The notes beneath the pieces were generated by a model. It was not told the origin of the DNA. It did no database searches and was given only the letters and a program-made list of their open reading frames with translations. A stretch of DNA of 64,000 nucleotides from Endomicrobiia bacterium. GTDB lineage: Bacteria > Elusimicrobiota > Endomicrobiia > DTEH01. Made by a program: the position numbers and the translations under genes. Positions 19,501 through 40,598 of the stretch are shown in pieces. Each line of letters opens with the position of its first letter. Within the stretch, counting starts at the first letter, position 1. Where the stretch lies: positions 31,984 to 95,983 of the forward strand of contig JBCNUU010000002.1 in NCBI GenBank assembly GCA_039630545.1, in the 5' to 3' direction.

Positions 19501-21080
19501 TGAGAGCTTTTAAGCTATTTATATTTTTAATTCTAAATCTTCAATTAGTATATTCTAAATCTACTGAAGAATTACTCTCTTTGCTTGAAGCAGGGGATTT
19601 TAAAAATGTTGAAAAGATTTTAGATGAAATTAAAGATGAAAATAAAAAAACATTTATGAATTCAATTTATTATCTTTATTCAGGTGATTATGAAAAAGCC
19701 TATGAATACATATCAAAAACATCTTCAGAAAGTATTTCTCAGAAGGATTTGTTTTTCTTTTATTATATTCCATATATTTACCAATTATTCAAAGAAGGAT
19801 ATAAAAAATATGAGACAGAAAATTTTATAATATATTTAAAAGGAAAAGATGAAATTCTTAAAGATTTAGTTCTGGAAAATTTTACAAAAATATTCAGTAC
19901 ATATAATGAAAAATTTAAATATTACCCTGAAGATAAAATAAGAATTGAAATATATTCTACAAAGGAGGAATTTTGTAATGCCTCAACATTACCTGAAGAA
20001 ATAGTTAAAAAAACAGGAGTTGTAGGAATTTGTAAGTTTAACAGAATAATGATTTTATCCCCAGAAAATTTGCCTTATGGATATAGATGGTTAGACACAT
20101 TAGCACATGAATATATTCATTTTTTGCTTAATAGAATCACCAAATTTAGATGCCCATTATATTTACATGAAGGAACTGCAAGATATTTTGATACTCTTTA
20201 TAGGTCTACTTATCCTTTATGTTTTAGTGTCGGCAATTTAAAAGAACTTTTAAAAGCAAAAAGAAATAATGAATTAATTCCATTCGAAAAATTCAAAGGG
20301 TCATTAGTTTATCTTGATACACAAAAACAGATAGAATTAGCCTTCGTAGAATTAGCTAGTTTCGTGGATTATTTAATAAACAATTATGGAGAAGAAAAGT
20401 TTATTGATGTAATAAATAAATATTCCAATTTTAATGATGAGAAAATGTTATATAGAAAGATTTTTAACAGAGAATACCAAGAAATAATATCAGACTGGCT
20501 TGAAAGTATTGAAAGAAAAAATGAGCTGATAGAGAAATATCCAGGTGCCATGATGGATGTAAAAATTTTAAGTTTAGAAAATGAAAAAGAATTATTAACT
20601 TTAGATATTTACCAGTATGTAGAACTTGGAGATAAATTTTTAGAAAAAAAACAGTATAAAGCAGCTTTATATCAATATAGAAAAGCTCAAAATCAACAAC
20701 CCTACAACCCATTTGTTATGACAAAGCTAGCCAAGGTGTTGTTGCTGTTAAAAGATTTTAAAAATGCAGAAGAAATTTTGAAAGAATGTATTAATGTTAA
20801 TCCTAACTTTGCCGGTGGATATGAATTAATTATACAACTGTATTATGAAACTTCAGATTATTTTAAAGCTTTAGAATACTACAGAGAGCTTTTGCAGATT
20901 AATCCATTTAATTATAAAATTAGAAAAATTATAGCAGAAATTTATTCTGATTTAGGAAAACTCAAAGAAGCTTTATATGAGTATAAGAATATTAGTCTGC
21001 TTACACCTCAAGATAAAAGTATTATTTCTATAATTGATAGAATAAATAGATATTTAGAAATCAAATACCAACCAAAATGA
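19497..21080 (+). CDS. Peptidase MA-family metallopeptidase with TPRs
   Basis: Signal peptide; TLAHEYIH plus downstream LHEGTA zinc motif; C-terminal TPRs. Start GTG 19497 or ATG 19500. Confidence 0.8.
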   Translation: MMRAFKLFIFLILNLQLVYSKSTEELLSLLEAGDFKNVEKILDEIKDENKKTFMNSIYYLYSGDYEKAYEYISKTSSESISQKDLFFFYYIPYIYQLFKEGYKKYETENFIIYLKGKDEILKDLVLENFTKIFSTYNEKFKYYPEDKIRIEIYSTKEEFCNASTLPEEIVKKTGVVGICKFNRIMILSPENLPYGYRWLDTLAHEYIHFLLNRITKFRCPLYLHEGTARYFDTLYRSTYPLCFSVGNLKELLKAKRNNELIPFEKFKGSLVYLDTQKQIELAFVELASFVDYLINNYGEEKFIDVINKYSNFNDEKMLYRKIFNREYQEIISDWLESIERKNELIEKYPGAMMDVKILSLENEKELLTLDIYQYVELGDKFLEKKQYKAALYQYRKAQNQQPYNPFVMTKLAKVLLLLKDFKNAEEILKECINVNPNFAGGYELIIQLYYETSDYFKALEYYRELLQINPFNYKIRKIIAEIYSDLGKLKEALYEYKNISLLTPQDKSIISIIDRINRYLEIKYQPK

Positions 21081-22174
21081 ATATATCTTCAGAAAGATTA
21101 TTTGAAAAATTAAAAGAAATAGATTGGTATGAAGATATAGAAAGAATAACAAAAGAATTAATCAAACATAACATGAATTTTTATTTTGTTGGTGGTACCC
21201 TTAGAGATGCTATTATTTCAATAATTTATAACACCAAATTTAATCCTGAAGACATAGATATAGTAGTAGAAACAGAAAATTATGAAGAATTAATCAAACT
21301 GATTTCCGGTATATCTTTTAATAAAAAAACTTTAATCGTGAAGTATCCTCAATTTTTAACTTTAAGTATCACTTTAATTTCTAAAGAAGATAATACAAAA
21401 AGGATAGATTTATCTTTACCAAGAAAAGAAGAATATGAAAAATGGGGTGCACTCCCTCAAGTAAAACATGGTAGTATAAAGGAAGATTTATTCCGCAGAG
21501 ATTTCTCTATTAATGCTGTTTCTTTAAGGTACGATGTTAATAATCAAAAATTTGAAATTTTGGATTTGTTTAATGGGATACAGGATATATTTAACCGAAA
21601 AATAAGGATTTTACATGAAAAAAGTTTTTTTGATGATCCTACACGAATAATTAGAGCCATAAGATTATCAGCAAAATTAAAGTTTAAATTTGAAAAACAT
21701 ACTTTAAGATTATTAAATGAAGCATTAAATAAAGATGTATTTAAACATATTTCACAGAATAGACTTATAAATGAATTTGTTCACATATTAAAAAAAGGGG
21801 GAAATCTAAAGGTAGTAGCATGTTTATTTAAAAGTTTAAAACTAATTAAAGTTTATGAACCAATAAAAGAGATAATAGAATGTTTTATGAAAAATTATGA
21901 TAAAATAGAACTAGCCAATGTACCCCTTACTTTTGAAGAAAGATATCTTATAAGATTGTTTTATCTACTTGAAAGCCTCTGTAAGGAAAAAGAGAATTTG
22001 GATAATAAAACTAGCAAGTTTAAAAAATATCTCATTCAGCTTAATATTCCTCGTAAAACAAGAGAAAAAATATATAAAGCATTACAAATATTTTCAGGAA
22101 AAACAAAAAAGATAGAACAAATAGAAAACTGGATGAAGTTATATATTATGTTATATAAGAAAAACAAATTTTAA
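21077..22174 (+). CDS. Class II tRNA nucleotidyltransferase (CCA- or A-adding)
   Basis: VGGTLRD...DIDIV, EDLFRRDFSINA, SFFDDPTRIIRAIR. Confidence 0.88.
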   Translation: MNISSERLFEKLKEIDWYEDIERITKELIKHNMNFYFVGGTLRDAIISIIYNTKFNPEDIDIVVETENYEELIKLISGISFNKKTLIVKYPQFLTLSITLISKEDNTKRIDLSLPRKEEYEKWGALPQVKHGSIKEDLFRRDFSINAVSLRYDVNNQKFEILDLFNGIQDIFNRKIRILHEKSFFDDPTRIIRAIRLSAKLKFKFEKHTLRLLNEALNKDVFKHISQNRLINEFVHILKKGGNLKVVACLFKSLKLIKVYEPIKEIIECFMKNYDKIELANVPLTFEERYLIRLFYLLESLCKEKENLDNKTSKFKKYLIQLNIPRKTREKIYKALQIFSGKTKKIEQIENWMKLYIMLYKKNKF

Positions 22175-22312
22175 AAAAACTGCTTTCTTCCTTTCCATTG
22201 TTAGGATCAAACCAGTGGTGATACAAAGTCAACAAAATGTAAAATTTATAATTATCTTATTTTAGACGGAAAAATAAAAAAATAATTAAAATGTAAATTT
22301 TTTGTTAAAAAG

Positions 22313-22341
22313 TTGACATTTTTTAAATTTATATATATAAT
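22313..22341 (+). promoter_or_regulatory. Consensus sigma70 promoter
   Basis: TTGACA(22313-22318)-17 nt-TATAAT(22336-22341), a perfect consensus, in an intergenic gap heading a tightly packed five-gene run. Confidence 0.8.
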
Positions 22342-22381
22342 AACTATAGAAAAGCAAAGCTACGGATATTTAAAAACAAAA

Positions 22382-22825
22382 ATGAAAAAACATTATATTT
22401 ATCGTTTTTTTTATTCTAAAAATATAATTTACATTTTTTTTACTTTAAATTTTTGTATATTAATGTTACTACACTTTTCTTATTCTGAAAGTTCTATTTT
22501 TGATAAAACAATTGTAAATTATACAACTTTTTTACACGAAGGACTTTTAGAAGAACCAAATATTGTTTTTACCAATTTCCCTAATCCCTTTAATAGGTAT
22601 ACTTATATCTACATAAAATTTCCTTATGTTAGCAGCTGTGTATTAAGTATCTATGATTTGTTAGGCAACAAAGTGAAAGAATTTATTTTAACAGAAAATT
22701 CTGAATATCTTATAAAATGGAATGCAACAAATAATAATTCACAAAAAATTTCAACAGGTGGATATATCTGTGTGCTGATGTATAAAAACAGAAAGCTAAT
22801 AAGAAAAATAGGATATACAAGATGA
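22382..22825 (+). CDS. Small exported protein, mostly a T9SS type-A CTD / FlgD-Ig-like domain
   Basis: Hydrophobic N-terminus; NFPNPFN...LSIYDLLGNKVK...WNATN...STGGYI...RKIGY. The track's TTG start at 22313 is the -35 box, so ATG 22382 is used. Confidence 0.72.
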   Translation: MKKHYIYRFFYSKNIIYIFFTLNFCILMLLHFSYSESSIFDKTIVNYTTFLHEGLLEEPNIVFTNFPNPFNRYTYIYIKFPYVSSCVLSIYDLLGNKVKEFILTENSEYLIKWNATNNNSQKISTGGYICVLMYKNRKLIRKIGYTR

Positions 22826-24396
22826 CGAAAATTATTAAAAGAATCATTTTAATATTATTAGGAGCGAATTTTCAATATATATATTCTACTTATACTGGAG
22901 GACAGCCTGGAGAATTTTTGAATTTTGGTGCTTCTGCAAAAGCAATGGCAATTAAAAGTTTCTTTTCTATTTCTAATGATGCTTCGGCTGGATATTACAA
23001 TCCCGCTGGTCTTGTTCAATGCGATAAAAAAGAAATCACTGCCTTGCATACAGAACTTTTTCCAAATACTCAAACTATTTACGATTACATAGGTTTCGTA
23101 TATCCAACAATAAAATATGGTGTGTTCTCTTTAAGTCTGGTGCAGTTGCTTTCTTTGAAATTCGAAAAAATTATAGTAGAATTTGATCCTTCTGGTTCAG
23201 GTGATATAATAAATATTCAACACCAAGGATATTTTGATGATAGACAAATAGGAGTGATATTAAGTTACGGAAAAGAAGTTGTAGAACATATAAATGTGGG
23301 AACATCTTTAAAATATATCACAAGAAAACTGGATATTCATTCAGACACAATGGTAAGTCTTGATGTTTCTGTCTTAGTAATTGGAATAAATTCAAAATTA
23401 CCTTTTTTAAACTTTGCAGCTGGTATTAAAAATCTAATCTCAGCATCAATGAATACAGAAGATAAACTCCCATTAATTTTCAAAATAGGTGGTTCTTATA
23501 GATTTTTAAGAGAAAAATTAATTGTGGGAGTGGATTTAGAAAAAAATGTTAACTCAGAATTCAAATGGATGGTTGGGATAGATTACTGGATATTAACTTT
23601 TTTAGCTTTAAGATTAGGTTTTGAAGGGTTAAGTTATTTAAAAGAAACCACAGCTGGTTTGGGGTTCAAATATCGTGACTACTCTGTAGATTACTCATTT
23701 GGTTACCATGAGTTAGGTTTTTCTCATAGAATCTCTGCTAATATGAAATGGGGAAAATCTGTAAAATTTGACAAGGAAGAAACGATAAAACGCTTTGTAA
23801 ATGAAGCTATAGCAAGATATACCACCGGTCAGTTCTTAGAGGCAACTAAAAGTTTACAATTAGCTTATCAGATAGATCCTAATAAAAAAGAAATTAAAAA
23901 AATGCTTGATAATTTACTTATGATTACAGCATACATTCAAAGAGCCACAGAAGATACAGAAGAACATCAGGGAATAAGAAAAGCTGTTCAAGCTTTAATG
24001 GAAGGTGATTTAACTACTACGGTGAATTCTTTAAGATATGCTTATTACAAAAATCCTGCAAATAAAACTCTTTTACAATTACTAAATCGTATGGAACAAC
24101 TAGCAGGTATGCCTTTAACAGAACCTTATAAAGAAGAAATTGCAGGCTGGACCATAATAGATAAAAAAATATATGAAGCAAGGGAAGATGTCTTAAATGG
24201 AAGATATACTGATGCAATAAGAAAGTGTCAAGAAATACTTAATTTAGAACCTAAAAATACAACTGCTATGGAGATTATGGGTTCAGCTTTCTTTATGATG
24301 AATGAAATTGAAAAAGCAAAAGCTATATGGAAAAAGGTATTAGAACTTGATCCTACAAATAAAGTAGTACAGCAATTTTTAGAAGAGTTAGAATAA
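22822..24396 (+). CDS. PorV/PorQ-family (UPF0164-like) outer-membrane barrel fused to C-terminal TPRs
   Basis: Signal peptide; FLNFGASAKAMA...NDASAGYYNPAGL; barrel ends VDYSF...HRISANMKWG; then about 210 aa of TPR helices. Confidence 0.82.
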   Translation: MTKIIKRIILILLGANFQYIYSTYTGGQPGEFLNFGASAKAMAIKSFFSISNDASAGYYNPAGLVQCDKKEITALHTELFPNTQTIYDYIGFVYPTIKYGVFSLSLVQLLSLKFEKIIVEFDPSGSGDIINIQHQGYFDDRQIGVILSYGKEVVEHINVGTSLKYITRKLDIHSDTMVSLDVSVLVIGINSKLPFLNFAAGIKNLISASMNTEDKLPLIFKIGGSYRFLREKLIVGVDLEKNVNSEFKWMVGIDYWILTFLALRLGFEGLSYLKETTAGLGFKYRDYSVDYSFGYHELGFSHRISANMKWGKSVKFDKEETIKRFVNEAIARYTTGQFLEATKSLQLAYQIDPNKKEIKKMLDNLLMITAYIQRATEDTEEHQGIRKAVQALMEGDLTTTVNSLRYAYYKNPANKTLLQLLNRMEQLAGMPLTEPYKEEIAGWTIIDKKIYEAREDVLNGRYTDAIRKCQEILNLEPKNTTAMEIMGSAFFMMNEIEKAKAIWKKVLELDPTNKVVQQFLEELE

Positions 24397-24408
24397 AGGG
24401 TATAAAAT

Positions 24409-26304
24409 ATGAAATTATTGAAAAAACTCTTTAAATTTTATATAAAATTTCATACAAAAATGGGCAAATTTAAATTTTCAATTCCTTTTCTACTCATCAT
24501 ACTTTCTTTTGATTTATTCAACCAAACAATAGCTACTTTGCCTTCTGAACAGCAGATTTCACCTATTATGCTAATTGAATATGAAACAAAACTGGAACAA
24601 CAAAAAACAGAATACGTACAAAAAAACATACTTGATAAAATTTTCGGTCCTAATAAATCCACAGTGATGATAGATATAACATTAGGTTTAAGAACCACTA
24701 CAACTAAACAACAAGCTTCTGAGAAAAAAATTGATGCAAAACGAAAACTTGGTGAAACAGAATATTTGTTACCTGGAATTCCTAAACCAGGATCTATTAC
24801 TGAGTCTGCTGTTCCAGCTGAAGCTAAGGGTGAAGCTTCTGGAACAGAAGTAGTAGGAGTTAAAACTGAAATAGTAATTGAAAGACAAAATGTAACTGTA
24901 ATATATGATGAAAAAATAAAAGATGAAAAGGTAGAAATAGCAAAAGAGTCAATTATTTCTACTCTTGGCATAAAAAGACCTCAAGATATAGTATTTAAAA
25001 AAGCAAAATTCAAAACAGATCTTTTAAATAAATTCTTAGAAAACATTGTTTTACCTAAGTATTTTATTCCTTTATTGATTACTCTGCTTCTGCTTGCATT
25101 TTTGTTTGGTCCGATAGCTAATTTTTTAAAAAATTATTTAAGAATGTTAAAAGAACGAGCACCTACTGAAATTTCAATAGACTCAAAACTTGCCCGTGAA
25201 GGAGAAACTCCTGAAGGAGAACTTACAGCAGAAAAAGCAACAAGTGGAATCGGTTTATCTGGAGGGCAGTTTGAATCACAGTTTACAGGAAAAGAAAAAG
25301 AAAAGGAAAAAGAGGAAGAAAAGTATATCCCATTTAGCTACATTAATGATGATAATATAAAAAGACTAACATATCTTATAGCAAAAGAAAAACCAGAAGA
25401 TATAGCAATTGTTCTGAGTTATTTAAAACCCGAATATGTTAAACAAATTATAGAAAGTTTTAAACCACACCTTCAGGCCAAAGTGGCTTTAGCTTTAGCT
25501 CAAGCTAGAGAAATTCCACAAGAAGAAGTTATAAGAATGGACAATTATGTAAAAGAAAGAATAGATTTTCTAGTTGGAGGCTTACATCATCTTATTGAAC
25601 TTCTACAGAAGGTAGACAAAACTACAAGAAACAATATCCTTGAATATTTAAAAAACGAAAAACCAGATATCTACAATAAAGTGAGACCTCAAATATTTTT
25701 GTTTGAAGATATTTACGAAATCCCAGATGTTACCTTGCAGGTTATCATAAGAGAACTAAAACCTGAAAATATAGCACGTGCTTTAAGAAATGCGCCACAA
25801 AACTTAATAGAGAAGTTTTTTAAAAATATGTCAGAAGGAGCACAGGCTTTGGTAAAAGAAGAAATGGAATATGGCAGACCTATGACTAAAGAACAGATTG
25901 AAGAAGAACAAAATAAAATATTAGAAGTTATAAGAAAATTAGAACAAGAAGGAAAAGTATATTTAAAAGAAAAAGAAAAAACTTTTTTAATTGATGCTTC
26001 AGAAGTAATGGTATTAACACCCAGAAAAATAGAAGACTCACCTGGATATGAGTATTATATTACAGCAACAGAATTATATCAACAAGGTAATTATGAAGAA
26101 GCCTTTAATTATTTCTCATATGCTACAGAATTAGATCCTCAATTATATGAAGCATATCAATATATGGGAAACATCCTATACGAGTCAGGCAGATACAATG
26201 AAGCACTTTCCTATTATAAAAAAGCCTTGGAATTAAATCCTCAAGATCAAGAACTTGCTAAATGGATAGAAGAGATAGAAAAAAATATATCTTTAACAAT
26301 TTAA
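24409..26304 (+). CDS. Membrane protein with FliF-C-like ring motif, TM, FliG middle and C-terminal domains, and TPRs
   Basis: FliG-like motifs PFSYI, EKPEDIAIVLSYL, GG linker, IFLFEDI, LQVIIRE, FFKNMS..., QNKILEVIRKLEQEGKV; N-terminal split ring-motif-like segment; TM YFIPLLITLLLLAFLFGP. Confidence 0.8.
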   Translation: MKLLKKLFKFYIKFHTKMGKFKFSIPFLLIILSFDLFNQTIATLPSEQQISPIMLIEYETKLEQQKTEYVQKNILDKIFGPNKSTVMIDITLGLRTTTTKQQASEKKIDAKRKLGETEYLLPGIPKPGSITESAVPAEAKGEASGTEVVGVKTEIVIERQNVTVIYDEKIKDEKVEIAKESIISTLGIKRPQDIVFKKAKFKTDLLNKFLENIVLPKYFIPLLITLLLLAFLFGPIANFLKNYLRMLKERAPTEISIDSKLAREGETPEGELTAEKATSGIGLSGGQFESQFTGKEKEKEKEEEKYIPFSYINDDNIKRLTYLIAKEKPEDIAIVLSYLKPEYVKQIIESFKPHLQAKVALALAQAREIPQEEVIRMDNYVKERIDFLVGGLHHLIELLQKVDKTTRNNILEYLKNEKPDIYNKVRPQIFLFEDIYEIPDVTLQVIIRELKPENIARALRNAPQNLIEKFFKNMSEGAQALVKEEMEYGRPMTKEQIEEEQNKILEVIRKLEQEGKVYLKEKEKTFLIDASEVMVLTPRKIEDSPGYEYYITATELYQQGNYEEAFNYFSYATELDPQLYEAYQYMGNILYESGRYNEALSYYKKALELNPQDQELAKWIEEIEKNISLTI

Positions 26305-26322
26305 TTCTAGGAGGAGATTTAG

Positions 26323-29300
26323 ATGAGTATATTTGACAAAATTAAAATTAAATTTTCTCAACAAGATGTCCGAAAGAATGAAATCAGTAATAACACTGAT
26401 TTAGCTAAATCTTCCTGCGTTTCTGCTACTTCACAAAAAGAATCACAAGAAGATTTATCTATGCTTAAAGAAAATCTATTAGCGGAATTCCATTATTTAG
26501 AACAAAAAATACAACAAGAAAGGGAAGAATTGCTTTCAAGGTTAAATTCAAAGGAAGAAGAACTTGTTTCTTTAGAAATGAAATTATCTTCATTAGAATA
26601 TAAAATAAATTTTAATAAAATAGATTTTGGGAAAGAGATTGAAAAAATTAAAAATCAAATTAGTGCTGAATTAGAAAAACTTAATGAAGAATATAATATT
26701 GAAATAACTAAATGGCAAAAAAAATTAGAAAACAAATCCAATGAGATTGAGCAGCTAAGAAACAAAATCATATTAGAAGAAACACAAAATAAAATGCTTA
26801 CAGAACAAAAAAAGCAAGAATGCAAACAAGAAATTGAATTTCTTAATAACAGGGTAGAAAATTTGAAAAAACAATTAGAAGAAGAAAAAGAAAAATTTTT
26901 AAAAAGGATAAACGAAAAAGATGAAGAAATATTGAAATTGAAATCGCTGATAGAGTTAAAAGAAAAACAACTAAAAATAGAAGAAGAAAAATATTTATTG
27001 TTAGCTAAAGATCTTAATGAAAAAAGAATTACTCAAATCTCTGAAATGCAGAGAAAATTTGATGAAAAAATTGAAAATTATAAAAAACTTTATAAAGCAA
27101 AAGAAGAAGAATATTTCACGATAAAAAACATTCTAGAGCAGAAATATCAAGAATGGCAGCAACAACAGGAAGAAATTGTAAGTAATCTACAAAATAAAAA
27201 ACGATTATATGAAGAAAAAATAAATGAATTATCTCAAGAAGTAGAAAAAATAAAAAAAGAATATGAAACAATAATTTTACAAAAAGAAGAGGAAATTAAA
27301 AAATTAAAAGTAGAGATAATGTTAAAAGAAACACAACAAAATGCACTAATAGAGCAAAAAAAGAAAAGTCTAATAGATGAAGAACAAAAGATTCATCAAC
27401 AGATTTGTGAACTAGAACAAAAGTTTATAAAAGAATATGAAAATTACAACAAACTAATTAAAGATAAAGATCAGGAAATAATACAACTGCAAATTTTATA
27501 TCAACAAAGAACTTCGCAGCTAAAAGAAGAATGGGACAAAAAAATAAAGAAACTTCAACAGGAAAAAGAAAACTTAGAAAAAGAAATAATAGATTTAACA
27601 AATTTACTAGATACTACAAAAAATAAGTTTTTTAAAATAATTGAGGATAAAAAAGATTACATCAGAACACTTAAAAAACAATATTATGAAAAAACAGAAA
27701 TTTTCAAAAAACAATTTGAAGAATTAATAGAAAAAGCACTCAAAGAAAAACAACATCTTGAAGAGGAATATAAAATAAAAGAAAAAGAATTTACAACCAG
27801 AAAAAATGAATTAGAAGCAATTTTAAAGAAAAAAGAAGAAGAGATACTTTATCTTAATTCTAAAATTGAAGCTGAAATTGAAAATCATCAAAAGAAATTG
27901 CTCTTACTTCAAAAGCAATTTGAATATGAAAACAGACCACTTTATATTCGAATTTCTAAACTAAAAGAAGAAATAAAAAACAAAGAGGCTAAGTTAAAAG
28001 CATTCATTGAGAAAAAGGATAAAGAAATAGAACAAATTGTAAAAGATTATGAGAATTTTAAAAATGAAGCTGAAAAAAGACATTTAGAAAAAATAAATGA
28101 GATAGAAAATCGCAAAAAACAATATGAAACAAAGATATTCAATTTACAAAATACATTATTAGAATACGAAACTCAATTTAAAGAAAAAATAGCTCAGTTA
28201 GAAGAAAAACTTCAACAAGCCACTAAAGAATTATCTAATATAGAAGAAAATTTTGAAAAAGAAAAACAAAAAATCATTGAAGCTAATAAAGAAGAAATTA
28301 AAAAAATAGAAACAGAAATAGCAAGTTTGCAAAGCAAAATAAATGATTTATCAGAGTATCAAACTAAAATTGAGCAAGAAAAAAATACAGAGTTAAATGA
28401 ATGGAAAAACAAATTAGAAAGTTTAAAACAACTAAAAGGAAAAGAATTAGAAGATCTTCAAAAAAATGCAGAAAAAGAGTATTTAAAATATGAACAGGAG
28501 TTAAAAAATATAGAAGAAAAGATTTCTTATAAGAAAAAAGAATACGATAAAATTTTATATGAAAAACAAAAGAATTTAGAAACTTTAATAAGCAATTTAG
28601 AACAAAAAAAATTAACTTATGAACAACAGTTATTGGATTTAAAGAAGCATTGGGAAAACAATCTGACACCTTTAATAAATAAGAAAAAAGAATTACAAAA
28701 TGAGGTTATTTTATTAGAGACAAATAGTAAAAATTTAATAGAGAATTATATAAAAGAAATAAATGACTTAAAATTAGCATATGAAGAACAACAGAAAACT
28801 TACCAAATTCAAGAGAATCAAAAAAAAGAAGAAATTAAAAAAATAAAACAAGAGCTTTTTGAAAAAATTAAAAATAAGCAGCAAGAAATAGAAGAAATCA
28901 CACAATTCTATACTCAAAAATTATCAGAACTCGAAAACAACAAAAACAATATAATATTCCAGAATAAAAAAATTTTGGAAAATTTAGAATTAGAAAAGGA
29001 AAAAGTAAATAATGAATTTGAAAATAAAAAAAGAGAACTACAAAAAGAAATAGAAAATTTAGAAAATAAAATAGTAGAAATAAATCATACTATCAAAATT
29101 CAAACGGATGAAAAAGAAAAAGAAAAAGAATCTTTAATTATACAACTGAAAGAATTACAAAAAGAAAAAGAAGCAAAACTTTTTAAACTGCAGAAAACTT
29201 CAGAACTCATATCAGATCGCTTAGAAAGGAGAATCAAATTTTATACTGAAACATTAAATTCTTTAAGAAATGAATATGAGAAGTTAATTTCTCAAAAACA

Positions 29301-31134
29301 ACAAGAATTAGAATTTGTTTTATCAGAATGGAAAGATAAAGAATCAACAATTATAAACGAAATAAATGAACTGGTAGAAAAGAAAACCAAAGAAATAGAA
29401 AATTTACAAATTCAAAAAGAACAATTATTAGAAAAAATTTCTAAAATAGAAAAAGAAGGAAAAGAAACTATAGAAAACATTCAAAATGAAATTTCAAAAC
29501 TTAAATCTGAGATATCTTCTAAAAAAGAGTTATTTGAACAAGAATGGAGCTTAAAACAACAAGAATTTGAAGAATTAAAATCATCTTTTTATTCTGAAAT
29601 TTCAAATCTTAAATCAAAAATTAACTTAGAAGCAGATGAATATAAACTTAAACTGACAGAAAAAAATCAAGCTATATCTACCTTAAAACAAGAATACGAA
29701 GGAAAATATAACCAACTTTTAAATGAATATAACAATAAAAAGAAAGAATTTGCTGTAAAAATTGAAAAATTAACTTCTCAAATAAATTCGTTAGAAGAAG
29801 AACTCTCATTAAAACAACAAGAATATAATAGATTAAAAAGAGATAAAGAAGAAGAACTCAAGGAGTTAATATCTAAATTTTCAGATTTAGAACTAACAAT
29901 TAAATTAGAAGAAGAAAAAAGGACAAAACAATTAGCCGAACAGAAAGAAAAATTTGAAAAAGAAATAGAATATTATAAATCTCAGCTCGAAAAACAAAGG
30001 AAAGAATATTTGGAAAAACTTAACCTCCTCTTTGTTGAAGAACAAAGAATAACACAACAATATAATGAATTGGAAAAACAACTTTCTCAACAACTCTTAG
30101 AAGAAGAAAAAAATTATGAAATAAAGAAAGAAAATTTACAAAAAGAAATTAAATTACTTCAAGATAAAATAAAAAATATAGAGTCTGAAAATGAAAGTTT
30201 AATAAAAGAATTGCAAAAAGAAATAGACAATATTAAAACAAAAATTGCTTTAAAAGAAATAGAAATAGCATCTGCAAAAAATAAATTAAATTTTGAACTT
30301 AAAAAATTTGTTTCAGATTATGAACAAAAAAAAGATAAAATAATAAAAGAATTCAACAAGGAAAATATGGAAATTTTACAAAGAATTAAAAACAAAGAAG
30401 ATGAAATAAATACATTACAAACAAGATGTTCTTTAAGAAATCAAGCAATATTAGAAGAAAAAAGAAGAAGAGAAGAATTTATGGAAAGAGAAATCAAAAA
30501 AATAATGGATGAATTAAAAGAAATCGAAACAAATTATAAATCAAAAGAAAACTATTACAAAAATCGTATTCAACATTATAAAGAAAATATTGAACTTTTG
30601 AAACAACAACTTCAAATTTTGCTACAAAACTGGGAAGACGAAAAAAATAAAATGTTGTCAAAGAAAGAATCACATAAAAAACTATTAAATGAAGAGATAA
30701 ATATGTTAAAACAAAAATTAAATGAGTATAAATATATCATTAATGCTTTAGTTGAAAAAATAGAGTCAAAACTAAAATTAGAAAATGAACTTTTAGAAAT
30801 AAAAGATTCAGAACTTATAAAAGAAAAAGAAATTACACAATATGTGATGGAAAAGATCTTCTCAACCGTACCAGGAAAAAAATTTAAAGATAAAATTGAT
30901 AAAACTCAGCTATATAAAGCAATAGATCTATACAATGCACAACAATATGATATAGCATTGAAAGAATTTTTGAAGTTGCTAGCAGATGATGAAAATAACG
31001 AAATTGTCAATCAATACATTAGTTTATGTTATTATAATCTAAATGATATCCAAAATGCAAAAAAATATGCTTTAAAAGTGTTAGAAATTAACCCAGAAAA
31101 TAATGCAGTTAAAAATTGGCTTAAAGAAATATAA
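26323..31134 (+). CDS. Giant coiled-coil protein (1603 aa) with 61-residue repeats and C-terminal TPR
   Basis: K/E/Q/L-rich, almost no Pro or Gly; no Walker motifs; SD GGAGGAG; C-terminal TPR. Confidence 0.85.
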   Translation: MSIFDKIKIKFSQQDVRKNEISNNTDLAKSSCVSATSQKESQEDLSMLKENLLAEFHYLEQKIQQEREELLSRLNSKEEELVSLEMKLSSLEYKINFNKIDFGKEIEKIKNQISAELEKLNEEYNIEITKWQKKLENKSNEIEQLRNKIILEETQNKMLTEQKKQECKQEIEFLNNRVENLKKQLEEEKEKFLKRINEKDEEILKLKSLIELKEKQLKIEEEKYLLLAKDLNEKRITQISEMQRKFDEKIENYKKLYKAKEEEYFTIKNILEQKYQEWQQQQEEIVSNLQNKKRLYEEKINELSQEVEKIKKEYETIILQKEEEIKKLKVEIMLKETQQNALIEQKKKSLIDEEQKIHQQICELEQKFIKEYENYNKLIKDKDQEIIQLQILYQQRTSQLKEEWDKKIKKLQQEKENLEKEIIDLTNLLDTTKNKFFKIIEDKKDYIRTLKKQYYEKTEIFKKQFEELIEKALKEKQHLEEEYKIKEKEFTTRKNELEAILKKKEEEILYLNSKIEAEIENHQKKLLLLQKQFEYENRPLYIRISKLKEEIKNKEAKLKAFIEKKDKEIEQIVKDYENFKNEAEKRHLEKINEIENRKKQYETKIFNLQNTLLEYETQFKEKIAQLEEKLQQATKELSNIEENFEKEKQKIIEANKEEIKKIETEIASLQSKINDLSEYQTKIEQEKNTELNEWKNKLESLKQLKGKELEDLQKNAEKEYLKYEQELKNIEEKISYKKKEYDKILYEKQKNLETLISNLEQKKLTYEQQLLDLKKHWENNLTPLINKKKELQNEVILLETNSKNLIENYIKEINDLKLAYEEQQKTYQIQENQKKEEIKKIKQELFEKIKNKQQEIEEITQFYTQKLSELENNKNNIIFQNKKILENLELEKEKVNNEFENKKRELQKEIENLENKIVEINHTIKIQTDEKEKEKESLIIQLKELQKEKEAKLFKLQKTSELISDRLERRIKFYTETLNSLRNEYEKLISQKQQELEFVLSEWKDKESTIINEINELVEKKTKEIENLQIQKEQLLEKISKIEKEGKETIENIQNEISKLKSEISSKKELFEQEWSLKQQEFEELKSSFYSEISNLKSKINLEADEYKLKLTEKNQAISTLKQEYEGKYNQLLNEYNNKKKEFAVKIEKLTSQINSLEEELSLKQQEYNRLKRDKEEELKELISKFSDLELTIKLEEEKRTKQLAEQKEKFEKEIEYYKSQLEKQRKEYLEKLNLLFVEEQRITQQYNELEKQLSQQLLEEEKNYEIKKENLQKEIKLLQDKIKNIESENESLIKELQKEIDNIKTKIALKEIEIASAKNKLNFELKKFVSDYEQKKDKIIKEFNKENMEILQRIKNKEDEINTLQTRCSLRNQAILEEKRRREEFMEREIKKIMDELKEIETNYKSKENYYKNRIQHYKENIELLKQQLQILLQNWEDEKNKMLSKKESHKKLLNEEINMLKQKLNEYKYIINALVEKIESKLKLENELLEIKDSELIKEKEITQYVMEKIFSTVPGKKFKDKIDKTQLYKAIDLYNAQQYDIALKEFLKLLADDENNEIVNQYISLCYYNLNDIQNAKKYALKVLEINPENNAVKNWLKEI
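26551..30591 (+). repeat. Degenerate in-frame tandem repeat, 61 aa (183 bp), about 23 units
   Basis: KxxE(I/L)-type anchor at residues 77, 138, 199, 260, 321, 382, 443, 504, 565, then in the same register at 687, 748, 992, 1114, 1175 and 1358. Confidence 0.8.
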
Positions 31135-31153
31135 AAGGGGGTAATAAAAAGAA

Positions 31154-33586
31154 ATGGATGAAATAAATAAACCACAAATACCCAAACCACCTCTTCCTTC
31201 TAATAAACCATCGGGGCCTAAACTGCCTGTTGGGAACGATAAACAAGTTAATTTACCATTTAAAAAAACAACTCAACCGCAAATTAGTACTCCTTCTAGG
31301 AGTATATCGAGTAGTTCTTCAACTACTCCACCACAATTTTCTTCATCTATAGAACAAAGATTATGGGAAGCAGAACAAGCAAAAAGACAAATGGAAATTC
31401 AACTGCAAGAATTGCAAAGAATGTTACTTGAAGAACGGGAAAAACTTATAATGCAAACAATGAAAACAAAAGAAGAAGAAGCACTCGCTGCAAAAGTTGA
31501 AGAGAGTATAAAAGACATACAGGAAAGATTAAGAAGAGAAAAAAGAGAACAAGAACTGAAAGAAGAAAAAGAAAAACTCTTAAAACAGATAAAAGAACTT
31601 GAAGAACGACTGGCAAAAGAAAGAGAAACGTGGATAGAAACTTTAAAGACCCAGATGTCTCAAAGAGATCTCCAAGACCAGCAAATTGAACAGCAGTTTA
31701 TTGCTAAAATAAGAGATATAGAAGCACGTTGGCAGGAAGAAAAAACTAAATTTCAGTTAATTCTTAAAAATAAAGATGAAGAAATAAATAGAATTAAAAA
31801 TGAATATAAAGTTTTGGAAGAAAAACTTAAAGCAGATTTTGAAAAACAAATTGCAGAATATAAATTCCAGTATAAGAATTTTGAGAATGAAATAAAACAT
31901 TTAAAAGAGGAAATCACTGAAAAAGAAAAAGAGATTCTTGCATTGAAATCTACAATTGCCACAATGCAATCTGAGTCAAACATATCTAAGGATAAGTTTA
32001 ATTATGAAATTAAAAAGAGAGAAGAACAAATTATCAAATTACAAAATTTAATTGAAAATTTAAAAGCAGAATTACGAATCATCAAACAGGAAAGAGAACA
32101 AAAAGAAAAAGACTTTTTTTTATTAAAAACACAAATAGGAATACTGCAGGCACGTCATAAAATAGAAATTGATAAAATTATTCAACAAAAAGAAAATGAA
32201 ATAAAAGAACTTAAAAAATCGTTCGAAAAATTGCAAAATGAATTGCAAGCTAAAGTGCTTATATTCAATGAATTAGATGAAAATAACAAAAAATTAAACG
32301 AAGAAATAAAACAAAAGGATATTATGATCTCTAAGAAAGAACAAGAAATCTATAACCTTTCTCAAGAGAAAGAGTTATTACTTCACCAATTAGAAGAAGA
32401 AAGACAAAAATTAGAAAGTTTAAATAAAGAATATAATACTGTCGTATCACACTTTAAAGAAATGTGTGCTATTAAAGAAACCGAGATAGAAAAATTAACT
32501 AATGAATTAAATAAATATGTCAATATGTACCACGAAATTAAATCTGAATTTTTAAAATATAAACAAAATTTCTATAATGAAGTAGAAAAAAATGTAAATT
32601 TAAAAATTGAAGAATACAAAAAGTATATTTCACAAATCGAAGATACAAATAAACATTTATTCTTAGAGATAGAGGAAAAAGAAAAAATAATAAATGAGAA
32701 TATCTCTAAATATCAAGATATGAAACACAAATATGAAGAATTAGTATGTAAATACGAAAACGAAATAAAAAATATTGAAAATGTAAAACAAAATTATGAA
32801 AACAAAATAAAAGAGTTACATACAGCTAACAGTTTATTAGTAACTGAAAAAGAAGAATTACAATCTCAGATAACACATCTGAAAGATAAATTGTTTAATT
32901 TGGAGAAAATAAATGAATTATATATAGAGTTAAAGAAAAATTACGAAGAATCTCTACAAAAAATAAAATCTCTTGAAGAAGAAAAAAACAAGCTAAAAGA
33001 ATCACAAAAAGAGATAGAAAATTTAAATTTATTAATAACTGAACTAAAAAAAGAAAAGGAACTTTTGGAAACAAAATTTAAAGAATTGGAATTACAAACT
33101 AAAAATTATATTGCTCAACAGCAACAATTATATGAAAAGGAAAAGTATAATTTTGAACAACAAATAAATGAGTTAAACAAACAAAACAAAGAAAAAGAAA
33201 AAATTATCACAGAATTAAATTCTAAATTACTTCAATACGAAGGCGATAAAAAACGATTAGAAAAAGAATATGACTTAAAAATACAAGAAATAATAAAACA
33301 GCATGAAGAAACTATAGATAAAATAGATTTTACCTGGAAAGAAATTCATAATAAACTTTTAAAAGAATATAAAGTATTAGAAGATACAATTTCTCAAAAA
33401 GATGAAGAAATAGCAAAATTAAAATCGCGTCTGGAAACATTAATTTTAGCACAAAATATAAAAAACAATAATATAAAATACGAAGATCCAAAAATTCTTG
33501 AAGAAAAACAGATAAGTCAAAAACAAAAAAGAAAAATATTTTCAAAAATATGGTCATGGTTGTATAAACCTATTTTAAAAATATAG
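31154..33586 (+). CDS. Coiled-coil protein (810 aa) with Pro/Ser-rich N-terminus and amphipathic C-terminal helix
   Basis: KPQIPKPPLPSNKPSGPKLP N-terminus, about 700 aa of coiled coil, ends RKIFSKIWSWLYKPILKI. Confidence 0.82.
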   Translation: MDEINKPQIPKPPLPSNKPSGPKLPVGNDKQVNLPFKKTTQPQISTPSRSISSSSSTTPPQFSSSIEQRLWEAEQAKRQMEIQLQELQRMLLEEREKLIMQTMKTKEEEALAAKVEESIKDIQERLRREKREQELKEEKEKLLKQIKELEERLAKERETWIETLKTQMSQRDLQDQQIEQQFIAKIRDIEARWQEEKTKFQLILKNKDEEINRIKNEYKVLEEKLKADFEKQIAEYKFQYKNFENEIKHLKEEITEKEKEILALKSTIATMQSESNISKDKFNYEIKKREEQIIKLQNLIENLKAELRIIKQEREQKEKDFFLLKTQIGILQARHKIEIDKIIQQKENEIKELKKSFEKLQNELQAKVLIFNELDENNKKLNEEIKQKDIMISKKEQEIYNLSQEKELLLHQLEEERQKLESLNKEYNTVVSHFKEMCAIKETEIEKLTNELNKYVNMYHEIKSEFLKYKQNFYNEVEKNVNLKIEEYKKYISQIEDTNKHLFLEIEEKEKIINENISKYQDMKHKYEELVCKYENEIKNIENVKQNYENKIKELHTANSLLVTEKEELQSQITHLKDKLFNLEKINELYIELKKNYEESLQKIKSLEEEKNKLKESQKEIENLNLLITELKKEKELLETKFKELELQTKNYIAQQQQLYEKEKYNFEQQINELNKQNKEKEKIITELNSKLLQYEGDKKRLEKEYDLKIQEIIKQHEETIDKIDFTWKEIHNKLLKEYKVLEDTISQKDEEIAKLKSRLETLILAQNIKNNNIKYEDPKILEEKQISQKQKRKIFSKIWSWLYKPILKI

Positions 33587-33592
33587 TTATAG

Positions 33593-33621
33593 TTGAAATA
33601 AACAATAAAATTTATTAAACT
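33593..33621 (+). promoter_or_regulatory. Putative sigma70 promoter for the M16/OppA/M6/PorV-like run
   Basis: TTGAAA(33593-33598)-17 nt-TAAACT(33616-33621) in a 56-bp intergenic gap. Confidence 0.5.
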
Positions 33622-33642
33622 TACCATTAATAAATTGGTTTT

Positions 33643-34953
33643 ATGAATTTTTATGTATTATCTTTTTTATTTCTCTTTTTAAATTTTATTTATTCTCAAA
33701 ATATGAACACACATTTAATTTTTGACCCATTACAAGATAGAAAATTAAAACTAGATAATGGTTTAACTGTTTTACTTAAAAGATATTCTACTTTGCCATT
33801 AGTTTCTATTCAAGTGTGGGTAAAAGTGGGTTCTATTTATGAATCAGAAGAAATAAATGGTATATCTCATTTTCTTGAACATATGGTATTTAAAGAGACT
33901 TCAAAATATACTTCAACTGTCATTAGTAAAAAAATAGAATATTACGGAGGTATTATAAACGCTGGTACTTCTAAAGAGTATACAGTCTATTACATAGACA
34001 TCCCAAAGGAAGGAATAAAAGATGCTATAGATGTCCTTTCTCAGTTAGTTTTTTATGCTACTTTTCCAGATGAAGAAATACAAAAAGAAAAAAATGTAAT
34101 AATAGAAGAAATAAAAAGATTAGAAGACCAACCTATGAATGTATTATATGAAAACTTTAATGCTTTATTATTTACCAAAACACCTTATAAATGGAGAATA
34201 ATAGGAAGAAAAGAAAATATTCAATCTTTTACAAAAAATCAAGTTAAAGAATTTTATCAAAACTTTTATCATCCCCAGAATATGGTTTTAAGTATATGTG
34301 GAGACATAAATTATGAAGAGATTGAAAAACTAATTAGAGAAAGTTTTGGGAAAATAAATGGTTTCTCTTATACAAAAAGCATAAAATCAGACTTAAAAGA
34401 AGATCCTAAATCAGACATTATAGAAATTAAAAAACATAAAGTTCAACATCTTTATTTCCTGTGTGGATTTTTAGGTCCTAATATTAATGAATTCGAACAA
34501 TATGCTGGAGATATAACTTCCGTAATTTTAGGAGAAGGAGTTTCTTCGCGTCTATATAAAATTCTGAGAGAAGAAAAGAAACTTGTATATGAAATACACA
34601 GTGGATTTTACACGCAGATGGGACCTTCTGTTTTCTATATATTAGGGATTTGTGAACCTCAAAATTTTGAAGAAGCTATAAGAGCAATTAAAAATGTTAT
34701 ATCAAATCTAAAAACAGAAGGACCAACAGAAGAAGAACTAATAAAAGCTAAAAATATTTTGTTAACCAGATGGTATCTAAATAATGAAAATGTCCACTCA
34801 ATAGCATCTACTCTAGCCTGGTGGGAGATGTTTCTTTCTTTAGATGCTGCCAATTCTTATATTGAAAACATAAACAATGTATCAAAAGAAGATGTAAAAA
34901 ATTTTCTTGAAAAATATGGTGGTTATTTAGTGACCACTGGTTTACAACCATAA
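33643..34953 (+). CDS. M16B zinc peptidase, catalytic subunit
   Basis: GISHFLEHMVFK (HxxEH), NAGTS, SSRLYKILREEKKLVY; signal-peptide-like N-terminus. Confidence 0.92.
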   Translation: MNFYVLSFLFLFLNFIYSQNMNTHLIFDPLQDRKLKLDNGLTVLLKRYSTLPLVSIQVWVKVGSIYESEEINGISHFLEHMVFKETSKYTSTVISKKIEYYGGIINAGTSKEYTVYYIDIPKEGIKDAIDVLSQLVFYATFPDEEIQKEKNVIIEEIKRLEDQPMNVLYENFNALLFTKTPYKWRIIGRKENIQSFTKNQVKEFYQNFYHPQNMVLSICGDINYEEIEKLIRESFGKINGFSYTKSIKSDLKEDPKSDIIEIKKHKVQHLYFLCGFLGPNINEFEQYAGDITSVILGEGVSSRLYKILREEKKLVYEIHSGFYTQMGPSVFYILGICEPQNFEEAIRAIKNVISNLKTEGPTEEELIKAKNILLTRWYLNNENVHSIASTLAWWEMFLSLDAANSYIENINNVSKEDVKNFLEKYGGYLVTTGLQP

Positions 34954-34963
34954 TAATTTTTAA

Positions 34964-36277
34964 ATGAAAAATCTGTTTATCTGCTTTGGATTATGGAGTT
35001 TTTTTATGATAAATTTAATTTATACCCAATCATTTAATATAGTAAAACAAATTTTATCAAACGGAATTGTTCTAATACATAATTATAACAAACAACCAGT
35101 AATATCAACTTTTATATTTTTAAAAACAGGGACTATTTATGAACCTTATAATTTAAGTGGGATTTCAGAACTACTACATGCCACAATCACTAAGGGAACA
35201 AAAACACGAACTTCCTATCGGATTGCAGAGGAAATAGAATCTCTTGGTGGAAGTATTTCTGCTGAAAGTGGCGATGATTTTTCAACTTTATCTTTGACCA
35301 TACTTAATCAAAATTTTGAAAAAGGAGTGGAAATTCTTTCAGATATTTTTTTTAATCCTTTATTTCCTGAAGAAGAAATTGAAAAAGAAAAAATTAATAT
35401 CATTGCAGAAATAATGTCTAGAAAAGATAGCATCTTTAATGTAGCTATTGATGAATTACTCATTAGTATGTATGGAAAAAAACATCCTTATGGCCGAGAT
35501 CCTTATAAAGAAATAAAGTATATAAAGAAATTGAAACGAAAAGATATATTAGAATGGTGGAAAAAATTCTATGGAATAGATCTTAATAAAAAAAACATAG
35601 TAATTGTTGTAAGTGGTGATATCAAATTTGAAAAAGTCAAAGAAGTAATAGAAAAGAACTTTTTAAATATTAAAAAAATAACTTTACCTCCACTTCAACA
35701 CACTGGATTGAAACCTTCATATAGACATATTAAAAAGAAAACTCATTTTAAACAGGCATATCTTATGTATGGATATTATGCACCTTCTCTTAGAAAAGAT
35801 GATATAAAAAAGTATATAAGTTTAAAACTTATAAATTTTTATCTTGGTGGAGGGATGAGTGGAAAACTCTTTGAAGTTTTAAGAGAAAAAAATTCTTTAT
35901 GTTATGAAACTAATAGTTTCTACCCTGGGAAGTTTTTGGAGTCTCATTTTGTAATTTATTTAGGTTTAGACAAAACAAAAATGGATGTAGCTAAAAAAGA
36001 GTTAAATAATATAATACAACACCTTAAAAATCATGGTATAAATGAAGAAGAATTAAAAGAATGTAAAAACAAATTAAAAGGAAGAATTTTATTAGATCAC
36101 CAAACAAATTCTAAACAAGCCTGGTATTTAGGATTCTGGGAGATAATGGATTTAGGTTATGAGTTTGACAGAGAATATATAGAAGAGATAGAAAAAATAA
36201 CCTTAGATGAAATAAATACTTTCTTAAAAGACATACTAAACAATAAAAATACTATCGTGGAACTCATTCCCAAATGA
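34964..36277 (+). CDS. M16B peptidase, non-catalytic partner subunit
   Basis: HxxEH replaced by ELLHA; retains LGGGMSGKLFEVLREKNSLCY (R/Y motif). Confidence 0.88.
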   Translation: MKNLFICFGLWSFFMINLIYTQSFNIVKQILSNGIVLIHNYNKQPVISTFIFLKTGTIYEPYNLSGISELLHATITKGTKTRTSYRIAEEIESLGGSISAESGDDFSTLSLTILNQNFEKGVEILSDIFFNPLFPEEEIEKEKINIIAEIMSRKDSIFNVAIDELLISMYGKKHPYGRDPYKEIKYIKKLKRKDILEWWKKFYGIDLNKKNIVIVVSGDIKFEKVKEVIEKNFLNIKKITLPPLQHTGLKPSYRHIKKKTHFKQAYLMYGYYAPSLRKDDIKKYISLKLINFYLGGGMSGKLFEVLREKNSLCYETNSFYPGKFLESHFVIYLGLDKTKMDVAKKELNNIIQHLKNHGINEEELKECKNKLKGRILLDHQTNSKQAWYLGFWEIMDLGYEFDREYIEEIEKITLDEINTFLKDILNNKNTIVELIPK

Positions 36278-39708: not shown

Positions 39709-40598
39709 ATAGAATCAACAAATTACTTTTTATAACTTTATTATTGATTTATTTTAACAGAATATATCCTGACACCAGCACAATAAATATACCTACCTGT
39801 AAAACAATTGGGTTAGCAAATGAAGTTTCTACTGTAGATAATAGTGGGTTTAGTATAATAACTAATCCCTCATTATTAAGTGACTTAAAAAATTTCTATA
39901 GTTTTGAATATGCTAAAATCTTCTACTATAGCAAAACTACTTATGATCTTTTGAGTATAGCTTCAAACACTTTCAACAAAATTGGGATAGGATTAGTTTT
40001 TGGAAGATTTTCTTCTGGTGAAATACAAATAAGAAATATAGATGGCATTTTAACAGGAGAATCATTTGAATATATGTATAGTATGTTCTCTTTAGGAGTT
40101 GGTGTAAAACTAATAGATGATATTTATCAAACTTTCCAGGCAGGTTTTAGCGGTTATACTTTTTTAGAAAAGATATATTCAGATAAAATATATTTTGGGT
40201 TTAATAACGGTGTAGCTTATGATTTAAAATTTAAAAATAAATTCCTGAAGTTATTAAGAATAGGCATTGTGATAAAAAAGTTAAGCATAAGCAAAAATTT
40301 TGTTTATAATATAGGCTTGGGATTAAAACTTCCAGAAAGCATGTTAATGGTAGGATATGAGGACATATTTCCTGAAGGAGCAACAAAATACAGAATTTCT
40401 TCTTCCTTTAATGTTTATACTTCAAAAGATTTTAAGAAGGTTCTTAAATTAAATTTAGGTTATGTGTTTAATTCAGATGTTTATAATATAAGCAGTGGAA
40501 TAGAACTTGAAGTTTATAACTTTTTAATATCATATTCATACAGCACTCATAAATATTTAAGTTCTATTTCTGCTATTCAGATAAGTTTTTTATACTAA
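39705..40598 (+). CDS. Divergent PorV/PorQ-like outer-membrane beta-barrel protein
   Basis: Signal peptide; KTIGLANEVSTVDNSGFSIITNPSLL resembles the PorV N-terminal motif; alternating beta strands; aromatic C-terminus QISFLY. Confidence 0.6.
   Translation: MNRINKLLFITLLLIYFNRIYPDTSTINIPTCKTIGLANEVSTVDNSGFSIITNPSLLSDLKNFYSFEYAKIFYYSKTTYDLLSIASNTFNKIGIGLVFGRFSSGEIQIRNIDGILTGESFEYMYSMFSLGVGVKLIDDIYQTFQAGFSGYTFLEKIYSDKIYFGFNNGVAYDLKFKNKFLKLLRIGIVIKKLSISKNFVYNIGLGLKLPESMLMVGYEDIFPEGATKYRISSSFNVYTSKDFKKVLKLNLGYVFNSDVYNISSGIELEVYNFLISYSYSTHKYLSSISAIQISFLY

Follow-up and report, generated by a model that had tools for sequence, protein, structure and literature searches.

Closest described systems and the locus

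In type IX secretion (T9SS) and the gliding of Bacteroidota, whose parts include the GldLM motor, the GldKN ring, SprA, PorV and cargo with a C-terminal sorting domain such as SprB, an inner-membrane motor acts through a periplasmic link on an outer-membrane carrier of the adhesin. The Agl-Glt complex of Myxococcus xanthus spans the envelope; it combines a motor of the MotAB/TolQR type with barrels in the outer membrane and, in AglZ, a long coiled coil in the cytoplasm, and to our knowledge it has no FliG or FliF domains. Here we consider a five-gene operon (g1 to g5, positions 22313–33586, + strand) in a 64-kb stretch of DNA from an Endomicrobiia bacterium (hereafter the window, meaning the whole stretch analysed), a member of the Elusimicrobiota whose own genome is 1.6 Mb and 95.5% complete. 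We lean, with modest confidence, towards the view that g1 to g5 supply the rotor and envelope components of a machine that derives from the flagellum without being one, is driven by MotA/MotB and is widespread in Elusimicrobiota. In outline such an apparatus would be like T9SS and gliding, and it would be a bacterial machine of a kind not yet described.

Some of the components have attracted comment before. A study on magnetotactic Elusimicrobiota (10.1101/2022.07.08.499144) notes that non-flagellate, free-living members of the phylum carry motAB, flbD and fliG homologues; there, the role of motAB is called unclear and a part in twitching enigmatic, and flbD is treated as a transcriptional activator. 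Another paper (PMC12199754) reports that rotor proteins occur in genomes without filament genes and asks whether rotor components serve some other function, and covalent FliF-FliG fusions made in the laboratory assemble rings (PMC6079021). A preliminary description of the locus was aware of no described system with this combination of parts. Our literature search, with subscription journals and bioRxiv supplements outside its reach, turned up neither this operon nor any natural FliF-FliG fusion, in keeping with that statement, but flagellar parts had already been remarked on in the study of magnetotactic Elusimicrobiota.

A rotor-derived fusion in a genome without a flagellar set

The gene that ties the locus to the flagellar rotor is g3 (24409–26304, +), whose 631-amino-acid (aa) product comprises a transmembrane (TM) helix, a periplasmic domain like the third ring-building motif (RBM3) of FliF, a second TM helix, FliG_M/FliG_C, and a tetratricopeptide repeat (TPR) region. 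Residues 319–518 (25363–25962, +), which include the torque-helix region (KFFKNMSEGAQALVKEEMEY), match Pfam FliG_C (102 bits, E 2.4e-29) and FliG_M (41.8 bits, E 1.3e-10) as well as FliG_MC of T. maritima (3ajc, E 7.5e-39; 1lkv, E 2.4e-38); FliG_N reached 21.6 bits, under its cut-off of 25 and overlapping FliG_M. Of the two acidic residues paired in the torque helix, E484 does not vary among 25 orthologues, and E485 does not among 13. The C-terminal TPR pair (26047–26301, +; TPR_2, E 1e-14; predicted local distance difference test score (pLDDT) of the model about 90) is cytoplasmic by topology.

The N-terminal third of g3 had no Pfam match, and residues 1–299 had no sequence match in the PDB at E values up to 10. 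When residues 45–216 (24541–25056, +) were modelled alone from 74 sequences (pLDDT 80), the structure model showed a ring-building motif of the order alpha-beta-[insert]-beta-alpha-beta, and its best structural matches among 48,161 chains were FliF MS/S-rings: 8z5v_A at Z 12.8 (root-mean-square deviation (rmsd) 7.6, 132 aligned residues), 6scn_A at Z 11.8 and 8z4d_1 at Z 11.2, with alignments of ~132 residues and an rmsd of about 7 in each case. Other proteins with ring-building motifs (PrgK, SpoIIIAG, EscJ) ranked lower, at Z 8–9. With the full-length model (pLDDT 67), FliG ranked first and FliF entries further down. The engineered FliF-FliG fusion 8z4d_1 was a top match for each half of the protein. 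The insert at residues 102–147 was modelled at low confidence, yet it contains a nearly invariant LPGxPxP motif (P122 invariant; L121, G123, P125 and P127 conserved at 90% or more in g3 orthologues). Two predicted membrane helices flank the 45–216 domain, and the models suggest a FliF-like topology with FliG_MC and TPR in the cytoplasm. The g3 product had been described beforehand as a FliF/FliG fusion; its derivation from the rotor stands, but the "FliF" portion is one RBM3 with a collar-like insert and not a whole FliF.

The genome that carries g3 gave no match for FlhA (PF00771), FliMN_C (PF01052), flagellin (PF00669) or YscJ_FliF in searches whose positive controls matched in four flagellate genomes each, and within the window a domain search of the open reading frames (ORFs) found no flagellar gene apart from the g3 domains, as had been noted at the outset. 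A complete flagellar set, in which g3 would simply be the FliF/FliG of an ordinary flagellum, is therefore missing from these matches, and the earlier proposal of a non-flagellar, rotor-derived apparatus agrees with both the searches and the FliG_MC and FliF-like structural matches. Compared with the flagellar motor core, made up of the FliF MS-ring, FliG, the MotA5B2 stator and FlbD/SwrD, g3 shares homologous FliG_M/C, the acidic torque-helix pair and an RBM3-like ring-building domain. It differs in lacking FliF RBM1/2 and FliG_N, in the covalent joining of FliF and FliG parts, and in what the Elusimicrobiota operon has added, namely a tail of TPRs, partners with coiled coils and a barrel of the PorV type. 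The laboratory FliF-FliG fusions (PDB 8z4d/8z4g) are full-length and engineered; g3 is by contrast natural, cut-down and found in a flagellum-free genome.

The same pattern holds across the phylum. Among 251 genomes sampled (fusion-family threshold E <= 1e-20), a fusion occurred in 80, FlhA in 6 and both in 3, so that 77 of the 80 fusion carriers are without FlhA, and flagellate members have canonical FliGs (335–356 aa) alongside the fusions. In a FliG_MC tree, 12 canonical FliGs, two of them from flagellate Elusimicrobiota, were split from the fusions at 100/100, and the g3 type formed a clade (96/82); two canonical sequences (L113, L115) had been dropped by the length filter, and among the fusions a library fragment of 316 aa formed a long branch.

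Operon order across Elusimicrobiota

The order g1–g5 is retained in four families of the class, and the pair formed by g2, which encodes a PorV-type barrel with a TPR extension, and the fusion gene is kept phylum-wide, so that synteny in relatives bears out the five-gene unit first described. The long, TPR-ended fusion type was found in 62 other genomes of the phylum sample, and hand comparison placed a g2 orthologue immediately before it, in the same orientation, in all of them but G081 (61 of 62). A public set of 64 loci was found by a single peptide pattern and so cannot tell whether the family occurs outside the phylum. Its full-length entries bear the titles Elusimicrobia, Elusimicrobiota or Endomicrobia, except for one "Ignavibacteria" and a few plain "bacterium" entries; PorV-TPR lies upstream of the fusion in 51 of the 52 public loci with enough flank. 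Locus architecture was established by tblastn, an ORF-based listing having missed the fusion ORF in 8 of the 64 loci, all of high G+C. The window carries the signature of these operons, namely PorV-TPR directly before a FliF(RBM3)-FliG(MC)-TPR fusion and, behind the fusion, a coiled coil containing an ERETW block.

Downstream and upstream of this core, relatives have more. In the 42 loci with at least 7 kb of downstream sequence, the g5 block was found in 39, FlbD in 26, MotA in 27 and MotB in 26. Distant families show the order giant protein with a C-terminal sorting domain (CTD)-like end, cyclic di-GMP-I (c-di-GMP-I) riboswitch, PorV-TPR, fusion, one to three coiled coils, FlbD, MotA and MotB, the giant upstream proteins being 794–2508 aa long and, by full-length comparisons, of one family. 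Neither flbD-motA-motB nor the front c-di-GMP-I riboswitch lies within the 64 kb. Judging from this comparative gene order, the operon is not self-contained and is part of a larger ancestral unit with flbD-motA-motB and the giant CTD protein, and the unit can no longer be called well delimited, as it had been, when its ancestral form begins with that protein and extends into the stator genes.

A second fusion paralogue, type B, is about 470–600 aa long, has no TPR, and is often both preceded by PorV-TPR and followed by its own motA-motB; one of the two FliG fusions in the genome studied here is of this type and lies on contig C2. In the flagellate genome G081 (L039, which is G081:C5, with L112, L118 and L121), a canonical FliG occurs together with a type-B fusion and with a type-A fusion followed by motAB, and therefore three systems coexist in one genome; the PorV-TPR gene that belongs with its type-A fusion is on another contig.

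That the fusions are a decaying remnant of a lost flagellum, with no present function, might be thought from the scarcity of flagella in the phylum, since most of it is without them and FlhA occurs in only 6 of 251 genomes. We regard this as very improbable: the reading frames are intact in 62 other genomes at 30–85% identity with many invariant residues, new fusions and partners have been gained where a remnant would lose parts piecemeal, and flagellate members hold both fusions and canonical FliG.

Stator genes away from the operon

Two MotAB sets occur in the genome, both outside the window, on contigs C34 and C2. Against the stators encoded within the operons of distant relatives, the C34 MotA shows 54–57% identity and the C34 MotB 41–45%; for the C2 MotA the figure is 30–35% against operon-linked MotAs and 49% against a type-B-linked MotA. 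On these identities the C34 MotAB is judged orthologous to the operon-linked stators of relatives. By its matches (C. sporogenes MotA 6ysf/8ucs, E 4e-63; PomA, E 9e-52), the C34 MotA is a stator subunit of the flagellar type; it retains the RK...EE stretch aligning with residues of PomA that we take to be rotor-contact charges, and its partner MotB has plug and OmpA domains. For E. coli, the role of the torque-helix and rotor-contact charges is taken from PMC12505986. FlbD is encoded at C12:192291–192518, about 96 kb past the window. Flagellar-type MotA and MotB, together with FlbD and, in relatives, the order flbD-motA-motB, are thus a further likeness to the flagellar motor core.

The giant protein, too, is encoded away from the operon. 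Its ORF at C34:121053–133890 specifies at least 4279 aa, the open frame as a whole spanning 6718 aa; apart from a CTD-like end it shows a weak GEVED match only, and it is an orthologue of the giants directly upstream of the operon in other Elusimicrobiota. Counting upstream giants by the C-terminal 260 residues of the C34 protein proved unspecific and was set aside, the CTD part also matching small g1-type proteins.

Several observations weigh against a MotAB-driven rotor. Stator, FlbD and giant protein are unlinked from the operon in this lineage; the A-type stator is missing in three fusion carriers (G005, G009, G021) and present in four genomes without a detected fusion (G002, G008, G016, G019). 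Within g3, a glycine stands where the T. maritima torque helix aligns an arginine, and the EHPQ motif of FliG_M, which is presumably FliM-binding, reads EKPE. The models give g3 one FliF RBM only, with a collar insert of low confidence, and searches of Pfam and the ESM Atlas returned no informative relatives for the coiled coils g4 and g5. Ring assembly, rotation and the barrel–rotor contact are moreover steps that we infer from sequence. In one family (f4, 20 genomes), neither an A-type MotA nor a fusion was found. In the sample as a whole, the operon is almost entirely missing from the large families f4 and f20, whereas free-living Elusimicrobiota from bog soil, groundwater or hot springs have it.

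Some of these points would suit a static envelope tether or polar organiser, in which the FliF/FliG fusion is a non-rotating, ring-shaped hub that joins the outer-membrane barrel to the coiled coils: scaffolding is suggested by the giant coiled coils and the three TPR ends, the operon of this clade no longer includes motAB, and the torque-helix arginine is aligned with a glycine. We nevertheless hold it to be quite improbable, given that flbD-motA-motB lies inside the operon in 26–27 of 42 loci, that 11 of the 14 relatives without stator genes in the operon still have an A-type stator (A-type MotA in 11 of the 14 g3-type carriers among 41 relatives), and that the torque helix keeps its two acidic residues.

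Outer-membrane parts and type IX secretion

The two genes ahead of the fusion encode envelope proteins. The product of g1 (22382–22825, +; 147 aa) consists of a signal peptide and a T9SS-type CTD (residues 66–143) with little else; the CTD scored 25.6 bits against TIGR04183 (cut-off 23) and 25.6 bits against Pfam Por_Secre_tail, just under its cut-off of 27. Small CTD orthologues stand directly before g2 in 11 of 12 relatives' loci (the exception, L024, is limited by its contig) and also in further loci of a wider listing, and at L016 a 1232-aa CTD protein occupies the place of the small g1-type protein. The product of g2 (22822–24396, +; 524 aa) is a PorV-family outer-membrane barrel (residues 31–308) with a C-terminal TPR-like domain of ~210 residues, which includes a TPR_2 match at residues 486–513 and is presumably periplasmic. 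It belongs to the PorV/PorQ family by model NF033709 (95.7 bits, cut-off 90) and falls below the equivalog models for PorV (NF033710, 18.5 against 250) and PorQ (25.5 against 220); a profile from 23 g2 orthologues matched PorV of the solved SprA complex (6h3i_F, E 4.9e-10). The earlier assignment of an exported CTD-like protein and a PorV-like barrel with a TPR extension is upheld by the TIGR04183, NF033709 and TPR_2 matches. A complex prediction for the g2 TPR domain (312–524) with g3 residues 45–216, each with its alignment, scored 0.26 against a mark of 0.32, a value that speaks neither for nor against a contact.

No core component of T9SS was found in the genome at cut-off among SprA, GldM and PorU; GldL, GldK and GldN were not searched for. 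SprA was represented only by SprA_N at E 0.004, below cut-off, and PorU was matched by CTD-like tails only (best 61.8 bits against a cut-off of 420), with no full PorU. GldM_1st had no match, an absence that is weakly shown, the control set having held no T9SS organism above cut-off. The coupling to T9SS-like export that had been proposed for the locus is hence unsupported by SprA_N, GldM or PorU.

The likeness to T9SS and Bacteroidota gliding extends to a PorV-family barrel, to CTD-bearing proteins including a giant one, and to an inner-membrane, ion-driven motor of the 5:2 type. The systems differ in that MotAB acting on FliG would stand here in place of GldLM, in that SprA at cut-off, a GldM match and a full PorU are missing, and in that g2 fails the PorV equivalog. 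Such a mixture could be read as a secretion energiser, with the MotAB/FliG ring supplying proton-motive energy to the export or outer-membrane insertion of CTD proteins in place of GldLM/PorLM and g2 serving as a PorV-like shuttle. CTD and PorV-family parts within the operon, a giant CTD protein gene adjoining it in relatives, and a genome without a GldM match or full PorU all speak for this reading, the last point being tempered by how weakly GldM absence is shown in the lack of a positive T9SS control. The genome has about 14 PorV-family matches and at least 16 CTD-like tails against two FliG fusions, and therefore general CTD export cannot depend on such a dedicated partner. A more obvious general energiser is at hand in an ExbB-ExbD-ExbD set beside four PorV-like barrels on contig C6, and on balance we find a secretion energiser unlikely. 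From the sequences, CTD/PorV-like pairs appear to be a general theme in this genome, only two of them tied to FliG fusions, which argues for a dedicated one-cargo device and not a general secretion engine.

The C6 region (C6:4977–19594) comprises an ExbB-like gene and two ExbD-like genes, the latter named by eye from their N-termini only, adjoining genes for four barrels of the PorV family and for several exported proteins that end in CTD-like tails; the set may be a general energiser of CTD-protein handling. Within the window, the gene for an M6-type peptidase with a T9SS-type CTD (37885–39708) overlaps by 4 bp the ORF behind it, which is 297 aa long and has a weak PorV-family match (E 3.5e-4); the pair (37885–40598) repeats the CTD-then-barrel arrangement of g1 and g2. 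A 1733-aa ORF at 42863–48064 has no Pfam family and no PDB relative. It was considered as a SprA-like translocon and rejected, with only SprA_N at E 0.004 and no PDB match, and likewise as a relative of the giant upstream proteins, having no BLAST similarity to the giants or to other ORFs of the loci that hold them.

Coiled coils on the cytoplasmic side

Two coiled-coil giants, both described beforehand as cytoplasmic, complete the operon, and neither has a signal peptide, in agreement with that placement. The 1603-aa product of g4 (26323–31134, +) has a TPR end (TPR_2 at 1565–1593) and no other known domain. Its orthologues, of 1558–2103 aa, are confined to the clade whose operon lacks motAB; their conserved parts are the N-terminus (MxIFDKIK) and the TPR end, and a g4-type TPR end occurs in 9 of the 42 loci, never alongside MotA. 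The 810-aa product of g5 (31154–33586, +) has a proline-rich N-terminus, a conserved block (about residues 150–240, "ERETW...RWQEEK"), a long coiled coil and a C-terminal peptide (IWSWLYKPILKI). It matched no Pfam family, and an ESM Atlas look-up with residues 60–340 returned generic coiled-coil neighbours only. Across the g5 family the block spans ~55 residues ("ERETW..TLK.Q...R....E..F..R..E.ERRW.EEK"), can be aligned in 63 ORFs from the loci of relatives, a count in which some genomes are represented more than once, and lies downstream of the fusion in the 39 of 42 loci counted above; the peptide W/F-x-x-L-x-x-P-[VI]-[VIL] was present at the C-terminus of 16 of the 22 proteins printed.

A possible mode of action

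If g1 to g5 do belong to a MotA/MotB-driven machine, its parts might work together as follows. Fold and homology suggest that g3 would assemble through its FliF-RBM3-like periplasmic domain into an inner-membrane ring, with a FliG_MC ring beneath the membrane. Flagellar-type stators, with FlbD, could then act on the FliG torque helix, as synteny in relatives and the conserved charged residues would have it. On the outer side, the pairing of the genes hints that the g2 TPR domain reaches the periplasmic collar of the g3 rotor and that the g2 barrel carries CTD proteins, its putative cargo being the small g1 and, in relatives, the giant protein of the neighbouring gene. In the cytoplasm, g4 and g5 may substitute for the absent FliM/FliN C-ring as a scaffold or tether, and the conserved C-terminal peptide of g5 is, speculatively, a candidate ligand of the cytoplasmic g3 TPR. 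The output would most likely be the moving, presenting or tensioning of a giant surface protein, that is, surface motility or regulated adhesion.

A more far-reaching form of this idea, which we put forward only tentatively and consider doubtful, is that of a third bacterial surface engine, in which the flagellar rotor–stator core (MotAB, FlbD and the FliF-FliG ring), minus export apparatus, rod, hook and filament, drives a PorV-like carrier and a giant CTD adhesin in gliding or adhesin conveyance, with the coiled coils as cytoplasmic track or anchor. Were the MotA/MotB-driven machine confirmed, the torque-making flagellar core would work, and would long have been retained, without any flagellum, which bears on what "half a motor" is good for and on how free-living, non-flagellate Elusimicrobiota, magnetotactic ones included, might move. 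Structural studies of how torque is generated would gain a natural minimal rotor, with one RBM and FliG_MC in a single chain, and a motor in the inner membrane would be seen to connect to outer-membrane cargo in a new way. To this picture the window would add a variant in which the stator genes lie outside the operon, no riboswitch is detected, and two parts have been gained, another giant coiled coil and a CTD protein without cargo.

Promoter and riboswitch

The operon is headed by a perfect sigma-70-type promoter (TTGACA-17-TATAAT, 22313–22341, +), matching at 12 of 12 positions and the sole such site within 21000–35000, and the five ORFs behind it lie on the + strand with intergenic gaps of -4, 12, 18 and 19 bp, so that on these points the ORF map confirms what had first been seen. 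The window is AT-rich (~25% G+C), and promoter-like sites overall are not commoner than in shuffles (78 found, against 74.3 +/- 8.9); the -35 box of the g1 promoter is invariant across six genus members. The TTG at 22313, the formal opening of the first ORF (g1, 22313/22382–22825), is the -35 hexamer itself, and therefore g1 most likely starts at the ATG at 22382. The further promoter-like element reported at 33593 exists, but as TTGAAA-17-TAAACT it matches at only 9 of 12 positions, and no terminator-like site was found in a promoter/terminator scan of the operon region.

In relatives, a c-di-GMP-I riboswitch, often in tandem, precedes the operon in 13 of the 14 loci tested (7 of 7 distant and 6 of 7 nearer ones, the nearer including same-genus L021 and sister-genus L019), and where present the aptamer sits between promoter and first gene. 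Upstream of g1, no c-di-GMP riboswitch was found at E values up to 1 in 21900–22500, nor any at gathering score in the window, and the g1 leader is about 34 nt long. The riboswitch was likewise not detected in genus members L020, L022, L023 and L025; within the genus it is kept in one species (L021:2866–3183, compared with window 22175–22381) and not detected in five, the window included. The alignment suggests that the aptamer is decaying progressively behind a conserved promoter in the genus. The operon is most likely under c-di-GMP control in most relatives and constitutive here from the consensus promoter.

Other genes of the window

At 53090–55520, a 485-aa ORF without a family, an ExbB/TolQ-type gene (54561–55166) and a 117-aa ORF matching only the first half of TauE/SafE lie together, the last possibly truncated or mis-called. 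The region 3092–15034 holds a Bat/aerotolerance-like set (DUF58, BatA-VWA, DUF4159, GATase1-like), after which come three tandem paralogues of a TMEM260-like O-mannosyltransferase fused to TPRs.

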